The notes under the pieces were generated by a model. It searched no databases and was not told where the DNA came from. It saw nothing but the letters and a program-made list of their open reading frames with translations. DNA of 64,000 nt, from assembly GCF_053078305.1 (NCBI RefSeq), contig NZ_CP166879.1, one strand, 5' to 3'. Below, one piece after another: positions 41,437 to 54,768 of this stretch; position 1 is the stretch's first letter, and each line of letters opens with the position of its first letter. The position numbers and the translations under genes were made by a program.

Positions 41437-43461
<2,025 letters not shown>

Positions 43462-49752: not shown

Positions 49753-51942
49753 ATGTTTGTGGAGCATAACCTGATAAAAAATATCAAGATATTCACACTA
49801 GCGTTTACGCTCACCGTGGTACTTATTCAGCTTTCCCGTTTTATTTCGCCACTTGCCATTATCCATTCCAGTTATATCTTTCTGGCGTGGATGCCACTGT
49901 GCGTAATGCTGTCAATCTTGTTTATCTTTGGCTGGCGCGGTGTCGTTCCCGTTTTATGCGGGATGTTTTGCACCAATCTGTGGAACTTTCATCTCTCTTT
50001 TTTACAGACTGCGGTCATGCTCAGCAGCCAGACGTTTGTCGTGTTATGTGCCTGCGCAATATTACGCTGGCAGCTGGGGACGCGTTGGCGTTATGGATTG
50101 ACCAGCCGATATGTCTGGCAACGTCTGTTCTGGCTTGGTTTGGTGACGCCGATCGGCATCAAATGCAGCATGTATCTTGTGGGGAGCTTCTTTGATTTCC
50201 CGCTAAAGATATCCACCTTTTTCGGCGATGCGGATGCCATTTTCACGGTCGTTGATTTGCTAAGCCTTTTCACCGCGGTGCTGATTTACAACATGCTTTT
50301 CTACTATCTCACTCGCATGATTGTAAGTCCCCACTTTGCGCAGATATTGTGGCGCAGGGATATCGCTCCGTCGTTGGGCAAAGAGAAACGCGCATTTACC
50401 TTAAGCTGGCTGGCAGCGTTAAGCGTGCTGCTACTTCTGTTGTGCACACCTTATGAAAACGACTTTATTGCCGGTTACCTGGTACCCGTTTTCTTCATCA
50501 TCTTTACCCTCGGGGTCGGTAAGCTTCGCTATCCGTTTTTAAATCTCACCTGGGCTGTTTCAACGCTTTGCCTGCTGAATTACAACCAGAACTTTTTGCA
50601 AGGGGTGGAAACCGAATATTCGCTGGCATTTATTCTTGCGGTGCTGATTTCCTTTAGCGTTTGCCTGCTCTATATGGTGCGCATTTATCATCGCAGTGAA
50701 TGGCTTAATCGCCGCTGGCATTTGCAGGCGCTGACCGATCCGTTAACGCTCCTGCCCAACTTTCGTGCGTTGGAACAAGCGCCGGAGCAAGAGGCGGGCA
50801 AGAGTTTTTGCTGCCTGCGCATTGATAATCTTGAGTTTATGAGTCGTCATTACGGGTTAATGATGCGCGTTCACTGTATCCGATCAATTTACCGTACGCT
50901 GCTGCCGTTGATGCAGGAAAACGAAAAGTTGTATCAATTGCCGGGTAGTGAACTGCTGTTAGTGCTGAGCGGGCCGGAAACGGAAGGGCGACTCCAGCAT
51001 ATGGTTAACATCCTGAATAGTCGGCAAATTCACTGGAACAATACCGGGCTGGATATGGGCTATGGTGCTGCCTGGGGGCGTTTTGATGGAAATCAGGAAA
51101 CCCTGCAACCCTTGTTGGGGCAGTTAAGCTGGCTGGCGGAGCAATCCTGCGCACATCATCATGTGCTGGCGCTGGATAGCCGAGAGGAGATGGTTTCCGG
51201 GCAGACCACTAAACAGGTGCTATTGCTGAATACCATTCGCACGGCGTTAGATCAGGGTGATTTGCTGCTCTACGCCCAGCCAATTCGCAACAAAGAGGGT
51301 GAAGGTTATGATGAGATCCTCGCGCGACTGAAATATGACGGCGGCATTATGACCCCGGATAAGTTTCTGCCCCTTATTGCTCAGTTTAATCTTAGCGCGC
51401 GTTTTGATTTGCAAGTGCTGGAATCCTTGTTGAAGTGGCTGGCAACACACCCTTGCGACAAAAAAGGCCCGCGCTTTTCAGTTAATTTAATGCCGCTCAC
51501 GCTGCTGCAAAAGAATATTGCCGGGCGGATTATTCGTCTATTTAAGCGTTATCACATCTCCCCGCAGGCGGTCATTCTTGAGATCACCGAGGAGCAGGCG
51601 TTTTCTAACGCAGAAAGCAGCATGTACAACATCGAGCAGCTGCATAAGTTTGGTTTCCGGATTGCGATTGATGACTTTGGCACCGGCTATGCCAACTACG
51701 AACGGTTAAAGCGTTTGCAGGCTGATATCATCAAAATTGATGGCGTCTTTGTGAAAGATATCGTCACGAATACGCTGGATGCGATGATTGTGAGATCAAT
51801 TACCGATCTGGCGAAAGCGAAGTCATTGAGTGTGGTCGCGGAGTTTGTCGAGACGCAACAGCAACAGGCGCTATTGCATAAGCTCGGGGTGCAATATCTG
51901 CAAGGGTATTTGATTGGTCGCCCGCAGCCATTAGCTGATTAA
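49753..51942 (+). CDS. pdeA: c-di-GMP phosphodiesterase PdeA/YfeA (N-terminal MASE1-like membrane domain, degenerate GGDEF, EAL)
   Basis: In frame of ORF 49693..51942; start at ATG 49753 (MFVEHNLIKNIK...), 729 aa; EAL-domain motifs near C-terminus. Confidence 0.93.
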   Translation: MFVEHNLIKNIKIFTLAFTLTVVLIQLSRFISPLAIIHSSYIFLAWMPLCVMLSILFIFGWRGVVPVLCGMFCTNLWNFHLSFLQTAVMLSSQTFVVLCACAILRWQLGTRWRYGLTSRYVWQRLFWLGLVTPIGIKCSMYLVGSFFDFPLKISTFFGDADAIFTVVDLLSLFTAVLIYNMLFYYLTRMIVSPHFAQILWRRDIAPSLGKEKRAFTLSWLAALSVLLLLLCTPYENDFIAGYLVPVFFIIFTLGVGKLRYPFLNLTWAVSTLCLLNYNQNFLQGVETEYSLAFILAVLISFSVCLLYMVRIYHRSEWLNRRWHLQALTDPLTLLPNFRALEQAPEQEAGKSFCCLRIDNLEFMSRHYGLMMRVHCIRSIYRTLLPLMQENEKLYQLPGSELLLVLSGPETEGRLQHMVNILNSRQIHWNNTGLDMGYGAAWGRFDGNQETLQPLLGQLSWLAEQSCAHHHVLALDSREEMVSGQTTKQVLLLNTIRTALDQGDLLLYAQPIRNKEGEGYDEILARLKYDGGIMTPDKFLPLIAQFNLSARFDLQVLESLLKWLATHPCDKKGPRFSVNLMPLTLLQKNIAGRIIRLFKRYHISPQAVILEITEEQAFSNAESSMYNIEQLHKFGFRIAIDDFGTGYANYERLKRLQADIIKIDGVFVKDIVTNTLDAMIVRSITDLAKAKSLSVVAEFVETQQQQALLHKLGVQYLQGYLIGRPQPLAD

Positions 51943-51991: not shown

Positions 51992-53194
51992 TTACAGCAC
52001 CAGTGCTGCGATTGACGCAGACAGCACACTCACCAGGGTAGAGCCGTAAACCAGCTTCAGACCGAAGCGAGAAACCACGTTACCTTGCTCTTCATTCAGG
52101 CCTTTAACTGCACCTGCGATAATCCCGATTGAAGAGAAGTTAGCGAAGGAAACCAGGAACACAGAGATGATGCCTTCAGCACGTGGAGAGAGTGTAGAGG
52201 CAATTTTCTGCAGATCCATCATCGCAACGAACTCGTTGGAAACCAGTTTGGTCGCCATGATACTGCCCACTTGCAGTGCTTCACTGGAAGGAACACCCAT
52301 CACCCATGCAATCGGATAGAAGATGTAGCCCAGGATGCCCTGGAAGGAGATGCTGTAGCCAAACCAGCCAGTCACGGTAGCAAACAGTGCGTTCAGCGCG
52401 GCGATCAGGGCGATAAAGCCGATCAGCATCGCGGCAACGATAATGGCAACTTTGAAACCTGCCAGAATGTATTCACCCAGCATTTCGAAGAAGCTCTGAC
52501 CTTCGTGCAGGTTGGACATCTGAATGTTTTCTTCACTGGCATCAACACGGTAAGGGTTGATCAGCGACAGCACGATAAAGGTGCTGAACATATTCAGTAC
52601 CAGCGCTGCAACGACATATTTCGGCTCCAGCATGGTCATGTATGCACCAACGATGGACATAGAAACGGTGGACATCGCCGTTGCTGCCATGGTGTACATA
52701 CGATTACGGGAGATTTTGCCGAGGATATCTTTATAGGCAATAAAGTTTTCAGACTGACCCAGAATCAGAGAGCTGACGGCGTTAAAGGATTCCAGTTTGC
52801 CCATACCGTTGACTTTGGAGAGCAGGAAACCAATTGCGCGGATAATCACCGGTAACACGCGAATGTGCTGGAGAATACCGATCAGTGCAGAGATAAAGAC
52901 GATTGGGCACAGCACTTTCAGGAAGAAGAATGCCAGGCCTTGATCATTCATGCTACCAAAGACGAAGTTAGTCCCTTCGTTGGCAAATCCGAGCAGTTTT
53001 TCGAACATTTCGGAGAAGCCTTTCACGAAGCCTAAACCAACGTCGGAGTTCAGGAAGAACCACGCCAGTAACACTTCGATAACAAGCAATTGAATAACAT
53101 AACGGATACGAATTTTTTTGCGGTCGCTGCTTACCAGCAGTGCGAGAATCGCAACAACGGCAAGTGCCAGTACAAAATGAAGGACGCGGTCCAT
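51992..53194 (-). CDS. nupC: nucleoside:H+ symporter NupC
   Basis: In frame of ORF 51992..53233; start at ATG 53194 ([17 protein letters not shown]), 400 aa. Confidence 0.95.
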
Positions 53195-53289
53195 ATTTGC
53201 TCCAAATATGAGGCAGGTTAAATTTCCGTGCACATTCTATGTAACATGGTTAAGGAAAACGAGATCTGACACACACTATAATGACGTCC

Positions 53290-53305
53290 TGTGACAAGCT
53301 TCAAA
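53290..53305. promoter_or_regulatory. candidate CRP site (TGTGA-N6-TCAAA) in nupC upstream region
   Basis: One-mismatch match to TGTGA-N6-TCACA about 100 nt upstream of nupC; nupC is a known CRP/CytR-controlled gene. Confidence 0.3.
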
Positions 53306-53464
53306 AATAGTGAGCTGTCATACATTTCTGCTATGTTGTGTATGGAAGCTGAAAGTTATGTAAATGTGCTAACATTAAACATAACCATAACATTCAAGTC
53401 ATCAATCTTTTCGTAGTCATAATCCTGGTCTATCAGAGAAATCACCACAATCCATTTAAATGAA

Positions 53465-53481
53465 TTTGATAATCATTCTCG
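53465..53481. promoter_or_regulatory. Fur box-like sequence upstream of mntH
   Basis: TTTGATAATCATTCTCG resembles GATAATGATAATCATTATC. Confidence 0.5.
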
Positions 53482-53495
53482 TTTGACATAGCATG

Positions 53496-53517
53496 AAACA
53501 TAGCAAAGGCTATGTTT
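53496..53517. promoter_or_regulatory. MntR operator (perfect inverted repeat AAACATAGC-N4-GCTATGTTT) just upstream of mntH
   Basis: Palindrome read directly from sequence 13 nt before the mntH start; matches the MntR box recalled for mntH. Confidence 0.8.
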
Positions 53518-53520
53518 TAG

Positions 53521-54768
<1,248 letters not shown>

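Follow-up and report, generated by a model that had tools for sequence, protein, structure and literature searches.

In Escherichia coli K-12, the mntH promoter is said to be under dual repression by Fe2+-Fur and Mn2+-MntR, as reportedly described by Patzer and Hantke in 2001. In Salmonella, mntH reportedly carries a Fur motif over the -35 element, an MntR inverted repeat between the -10 element and the ribosome-binding site (RBS), and an OxyR motif too, in the description credited to Kehres and colleagues in 2002. Repression of mntH by MntR is stated in reviews and later papers, and one later paper states with reference to Patzer and Hantke 2001 that MntR binds short palindromic boxes. The locus analysed here lies in a stretch of 64,000 nucleotides (hereafter the window) and matches the nupC-mntH intergenic region of E. 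coli, which is found in 5424 of the 5426 complete E. coli genomes. The gene regulated by the two operators, mntH, occupies 53530..54768 on the + strand, as an open reading frame of 412 codons (412 aa) with its ATG at 53530; in RefSeq records that are identical or nearly so, its product is annotated as an Nramp-family Mn2+/H+ symporter. On the - strand, nupC (51992-53194) is divergent to mntH. Positions 53430-53579 are identical to K-12 MG1655 except for a single base, at 53486 (A in the window, G in MG1655), which falls outside both the Fur box and the palindrome. We are highly confident that this region is the known mntH promoter-operator of E. coli, with its sigma-70 promoter, Fur box and MntR palindrome. 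The mntH control region is real, well conserved and already known, and there is nothing new in it. Its proposed use in the earlier note as a positive control for readable operator signals is valid.

The candidate MntR operator is a perfect inverted repeat, AAACATAGC-AAAG-GCTATGTTT, spanning 53496..53517 with no strand assigned. It is built of two 9-nt arms (AAACATAGC, 53496-53504, and GCTATGTTT, 53509-53517), found to be 100% complementary in a repeat search, on either side of a 4-nt spacer (AAAG, 53505-53508); the conserved core corresponds to the first 18 nt (53496-53513). Twelve bases (53518-53529) lie between the end of the palindrome and the mntH ATG at 53530. This is an offset of 13, and the perfect inverted repeat that had been placed 13 nt upstream of the mntH start is indeed there. 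The motif ATAGC-N4-GCTAT is matched exactly at 53500-53513, its sole exact match within the 64-kb window. With up to three mismatches allowed, the 22-nt pattern occurs once in 64 kb, compared to 0.03 occurrences expected, and no further copies were found elsewhere in the window with up to four. Perfect inverted repeats with 9-nt arms are not rare as such, since the window contains about 10 distinct ones, mostly terminator-like. Therefore, symmetry by itself is no evidence; what makes the palindrome significant is its particular sequence, together with where it lies and how well it is conserved. An additional MntR half-site, ACATAGC at 53486-53492, overlapping the -10 element, was considered and rejected, as it is conserved neither in E. 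coli nor across genera. These positions read GCATAGC in K-12 and ACGTAGC in other strains, and in the -10 element itself invariance is limited to T, A and T; this third copy of the half-site is probably coincidental.

The same motif is found upstream of other genes of the K-12 MntR regulon. The dps site (ACACATAGCCGGTGCTATACTT, 46 nt upstream of the dps start) has 3 mismatches to the mntH palindrome, the mntS/rybA site (TAATATAGCCTGTGCTATATCT, over the 5′ end of rybA) has 4, and mntP has two sites with 3 mismatches each, about 360-420 nt upstream of its coding sequence. In an unbiased scan, every 22-mer of 53195-53529 was compared with three upstream regions (mntS, mntP and dps). The palindrome ranked first, with a score of 51 versus a mean of 38.0 (sd 2.8). 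The mntR gene itself is located outside the window and is present in 5421 of the 5426 complete E. coli genomes. A full-text literature search with the sequence of the site gave nothing but unrelated primers. We take the exact palindrome at 53496-53517 to be the published MntR site of mntH. Overall, the identification of an MntR palindrome upstream of mntH held up, as the best 22-mer in common with the sequences that precede mntS, mntP (twice) and dps and as an element near-invariant across 80 sequences. The prediction that it is the MntR operator is supported by computed motif sharing, conservation and secondary citations.

Conservation was assessed on an alignment of 80 sequences, namely the window and 79 of 80 mntH loci from genome contigs of Enterobacteriaceae species (Escherichia, Citrobacter, Salmonella, Enterobacter, Klebsiella, Raoultella, Buttiauxella, Kosakonia and others). 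A promoter consensus scan predicts a -35 hexamer, TTGATA (53466..53471, + strand), which is invariant in all 80 sequences, followed after a 17-nt spacer by a -10 hexamer, TAGCAT (53489..53494, + strand), that ends 1 nt upstream of the palindrome. The palindrome thus sits between the -10 hexamer and the ribosome-binding site, where the Shine-Dalgarno sequence of mntH is GAGG (53520..53523, + strand). In the Fur box and -35 region, the invariant columns are TTGATAA (53466-53472), ATT (53475-53477) and C 53480. The -10 hexamer is invariant at exactly T 53489, A 53490 and T 53494, the pattern expected of a -10 element. Further downstream, AAACATAGCAAAGGCTAT (53496-53513) is invariant save for one spacer substitution, at 53506 in one genome; 53515 is also invariant, as are the GG of the Shine-Dalgarno sequence (53522-53523) and the TG of the start codon. 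Taken together, these invariant columns are as expected of a promoter with two operators. By comparison, none of the 134 fourfold-degenerate mntH sites in invariant codons is invariant in the same species, and their mean majority frequency is 0.55. Since neutral sites are saturated, the near-invariant non-coding runs point to selection. Within E. coli, all variation of 53430-53579 is confined to 53481-53495, between the Fur box and the palindrome.

From the position of the -10 hexamer, the predicted transcription start falls within the left arm, near 53500-53502, and the palindrome would span about -5 to +17. The left arm and spacer (AAACATAGCAAAG) are frozen in the 80 sequences, apart from the single spacer substitution, whereas the right arm tolerates changes. 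Perfect symmetry is limited to Escherichia, Citrobacter, Salmonella and Kluyvera, and the right arm reads GCTATATTT or GCTATATCT in most of the remaining genera. The distance to mntH is unusual in one locus (L031, Trabulsiella odontotermitis TbOT1.10, at about 1110-1200), in which a ATATTTCAGAGGCAGAA segment is tandemly duplicated between the palindrome and the mntH ATG. This duplication places the palindrome 28 nt from the mntH start, compared to the usual 9-13 nt.

The Fur box extends over 53462..53481 (no strand assigned) and contains the -35 hexamer. Two models were used, a 19-bp consensus (GATAATGATAATCATTATC) and an alternative 7-1-7 inverted repeat. The 19-mer GAATTTGATAATCATTCTC (53462-53480) matches the consensus at 15/19 positions, and the 7-1-7 form TGATAATCATTCTCG (53467-53481) at 12/14. 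Within the window, no site matches the Fur consensus better, and this one shares the top rank. With at most four mismatches, 2 matches to the 19-mer are observed in the window versus 0.12 expected from dinucleotide shuffles; for the 7-1-7 form with at most two mismatches, 4 strand-hits are observed versus 0.25 expected. The other Fur-like matches, at 41494-41512 (15/19) and 49772-49786 (7-1-7, 12/14), are both inside coding sequences, the second one in the 5′ end of pdeA, and were treated as probably due to chance. A Fur-like AT-rich box had been proposed 15 nt upstream of the palindrome. The box is present and the spacing is correct, with 15 nt between the end of the 19-mer (53480) and the start of the palindrome (53496), but the start proposed for it, 53465, leaves out 3 nt at the beginning of the 19-mer.

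Published Fur data could be mapped onto this box. Using information theory, Chen et al. 2007 (PMC2189734) predicted a Fur cluster at mntH, with the strongest site (19.9 bits, 25 bp) at 2510784, or -56 from the start codon; neither a footprint nor a gel shift is flagged there for the mntH Fur site. Position -56 corresponds to 53474, on which the 7-1-7 match is exactly centred. In MG1655, Gao et al. 2023 (PMC10164565) assigned to mntH a Fur ChIP-exo peak (P75, 2510767-2510798) seen in iron-replete conditions only and also listed in Seo et al. Anchored on the -56 position of Chen et al. 2007, which uses the same coordinate system, P75 converts to about 53460-53491, with a possible 1-nt offset. 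The peak covers the whole Fur box and ends before the palindrome. Hence, instead of mapping elsewhere, both the ChIP-exo peak and the predicted 19.9-bit site fall on the box. In addition, mntH belongs to the nine-strain core Fur regulon and is upregulated in the fur deletions of the nine strains, with log2 changes of 1.16-3.30 (Gao et al. 2023, PMC10164565), and an mntH-lacZ fusion is repressed by Fur (Beauchene et al. 2015). The Fur-box interpretation is therefore supported, with a consensus match of only 15/19 for the 19-mer. Overall, the dual control of mntH by manganese and iron, which the earlier note had referred to, agrees with the shared motif, with the conservation and with the published Fur data mapped onto the box.

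Just upstream of the -35 element, a candidate OxyR-binding region (53419..53455, no strand assigned) includes the block CTATCAGAGAAATCA (53430-53444), at least 90% conserved across the 80 aligned sequences. A review states that the mntH promoter has an OxyR site, with which the conserved block probably coincides. Compared with the OxyR consensus ATAGnTnnnAnCTAT-N7-ATAGnTnnnAnCTAT, the region 53419-53455 scores 13/20, a level that several unrelated sites of the window also reach and that is not above background. At the other end of the intergenic region, a second Fur ChIP-exo peak without an assigned gene (P76, 2511044-2511073; Gao et al. 2023, PMC10164565) converts to about 53185-53214. The peak lies over a perfect palindrome, CATATTTG-CTC-CAAATATG (53192-53210), that contains the nupC start codon and, on the minus strand, the GGAG of nupC. 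This palindrome is unlike a Fur box and is present with at most three substitutions in 75 of 79 related loci.

Could the mntH palindrome be something other than a DNA operator for MntR? With about 10 perfect inverted repeats with 9-nt arms in the window, it might be a chance repeat, or it might be the site of another regulator. However, it is near-invariant in 80 sequences in which neutral sites are saturated, its motif is common specifically to the mntS, mntP and dps upstream regions, and the literature consistently credits MntR with the Mn2+-dependent repression of mntH, so that we consider chance or another regulator extremely improbable. The palindrome could also act in RNA, as a hairpin of the mntH 5′ leader that, for example, controls translation or attenuation or belongs to a Mn2+ riboswitch. 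A Mn2+-responsive leader has reportedly been claimed for Salmonella mntH, by Shi and colleagues in 2014, which would favour such a role. Moreover, 53490-53545 folds as an 11-pair hairpin (-15 kcal/mol, z = -3.4) that ends 5 nt before the Shine-Dalgarno sequence. Yet the nine arm pairs show no compensatory change in 77 distinct sequences. Seven of them never vary, an uncompensated C·A is found at pair 4 in 57 of the 77, and pair 2 is mismatched in 12. The loop is conserved as strongly as the stem and, with the predicted start (about 53501) inside the left arm, the main transcript could not form the stem. When 53200-53650 was searched with Rfam covariance models (yybP-ykoY and other riboswitch or leader families), there was no relevant match even at E = 10; no terminator-like site was found in the mntH leader region. 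The absence of covariation largely refutes the RNA hairpin, which we regard as very unlikely.

The conservation might also reflect a coding sequence, that of the small protein YpeD, and not operators. ypeD (b4819; 53460-53549, + strand) is annotated in K-12 and O157, with 29 aa in K-12, and spans the Fur box, the -10 hexamer, the palindrome and the mntH start. Its product has been detected by ribosome profiling, and homologues are reported in Salmonella and Citrobacter. Since the ypeD start (53460) precedes the predicted transcription start (53500-53502), some transcription must begin further upstream. Against a coding origin of the conservation, codon 9 is a TGA stop in the window (A 53486) and TAA in other E. 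coli lineages, as compared to TGG in K-12. The 90 nt of ypeD are identical in only 55 of 5425 E. coli records. Among about 80-82 Enterobacteriaceae sequences, the open reading frame has 29 aa in 11 (11/82), is reduced to 11 codons in 34 and lacks an ATG in 9. The reading frame across the palindrome varies between genera, and no variation is seen at third-codon positions inside the palindrome, contrary to what a coding sequence would show. Conservation due to YpeD is therefore exceedingly doubtful; the reported conservation of ypeD is probably that of the operators. A distinct point is raised by the AAAG spacer, almost invariant in mntH orthologues yet different in the K-12 MntR sites of the other genes, so that contacts with MntR may account for only part of the conservation. 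Together with the contrast between the frozen left arm and the variable right arm, this could point to a second function overlapping the operator, such as constraints acting on the first transcribed bases, or translation of a ypeD-type uORF coupled to mntH initiation. We consider this unlikely.

In the reading that we prefer, two operators acting on one promoter, a sigma-70 promoter with its -35 hexamer at 53466-53471 and its -10 hexamer at 53489-53494 would drive mntH. When iron is sufficient, Fe2+-Fur would bind 53462-53481, cover the -35 hexamer and presumably exclude RNA polymerase by steric hindrance. When manganese is sufficient, a Mn2+-MntR dimer would bind the 22-bp palindrome at 53496-53517, 1 nt past the -10 hexamer and over the predicted start, and may block open-complex formation or promoter escape, again by a steric mechanism suggested by the layout. 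With separate, non-overlapping sites, each repressor could work without the other. The conserved block immediately preceding the -35 hexamer is probably where OxyR acts as an activator.

The value of this site is mainly one of calibration. Reading the raw sequence located two real, experimentally supported operators within a few bases, and comparable calls elsewhere in the scan therefore deserve some trust. The mntH site is a node where iron, manganese and peroxide signals meet on manganese import. This convergence has been described since 2000-2002, and the present analysis leaves the picture unchanged.

Compared with known systems, the closest is the E. coli K-12 mntH promoter, which is the same locus. 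No functional difference is expected from the one-base difference at 53486 over 53430-53579, a substitution that creates the stop in the overlapping ypeD. In Salmonella, the identical palindrome AAACATAGCAAAGGCTATGTTT is found at two loci (L014 and L015), as is TTGATAATCATTATC, with the same arrangement as in the window, and the layout reported for Salmonella mntH matches that of the window. The Salmonella Fur box is nearer to the consensus, with ATTATC where the window has ATTCTC, and the stretch separating it from the -10 element differs. The other E. coli MntR sites (mntS/rybA, the two of mntP, and dps) have the core ATAGC-N4-GCTAT in common with the mntH site, with A/T-rich outer positions, except that one mntP half-site reads TTAGC instead of ATAGC. 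They depart from the mntH site by 3-4 mismatches and have differing 4-nt spacers. Among the sites compared, only at mntH is the palindrome perfect. By its title, Waters 2011 presents mntP, on the other hand, as an activated efflux gene. Finally, MntR of Bacillus subtilis belongs to the same regulator family as E. coli MntR, and its operators, like those of the DtxR family, follow the same logic, a Mn2+-loaded dimer on an inverted repeat at an importer promoter, with a different operator sequence.
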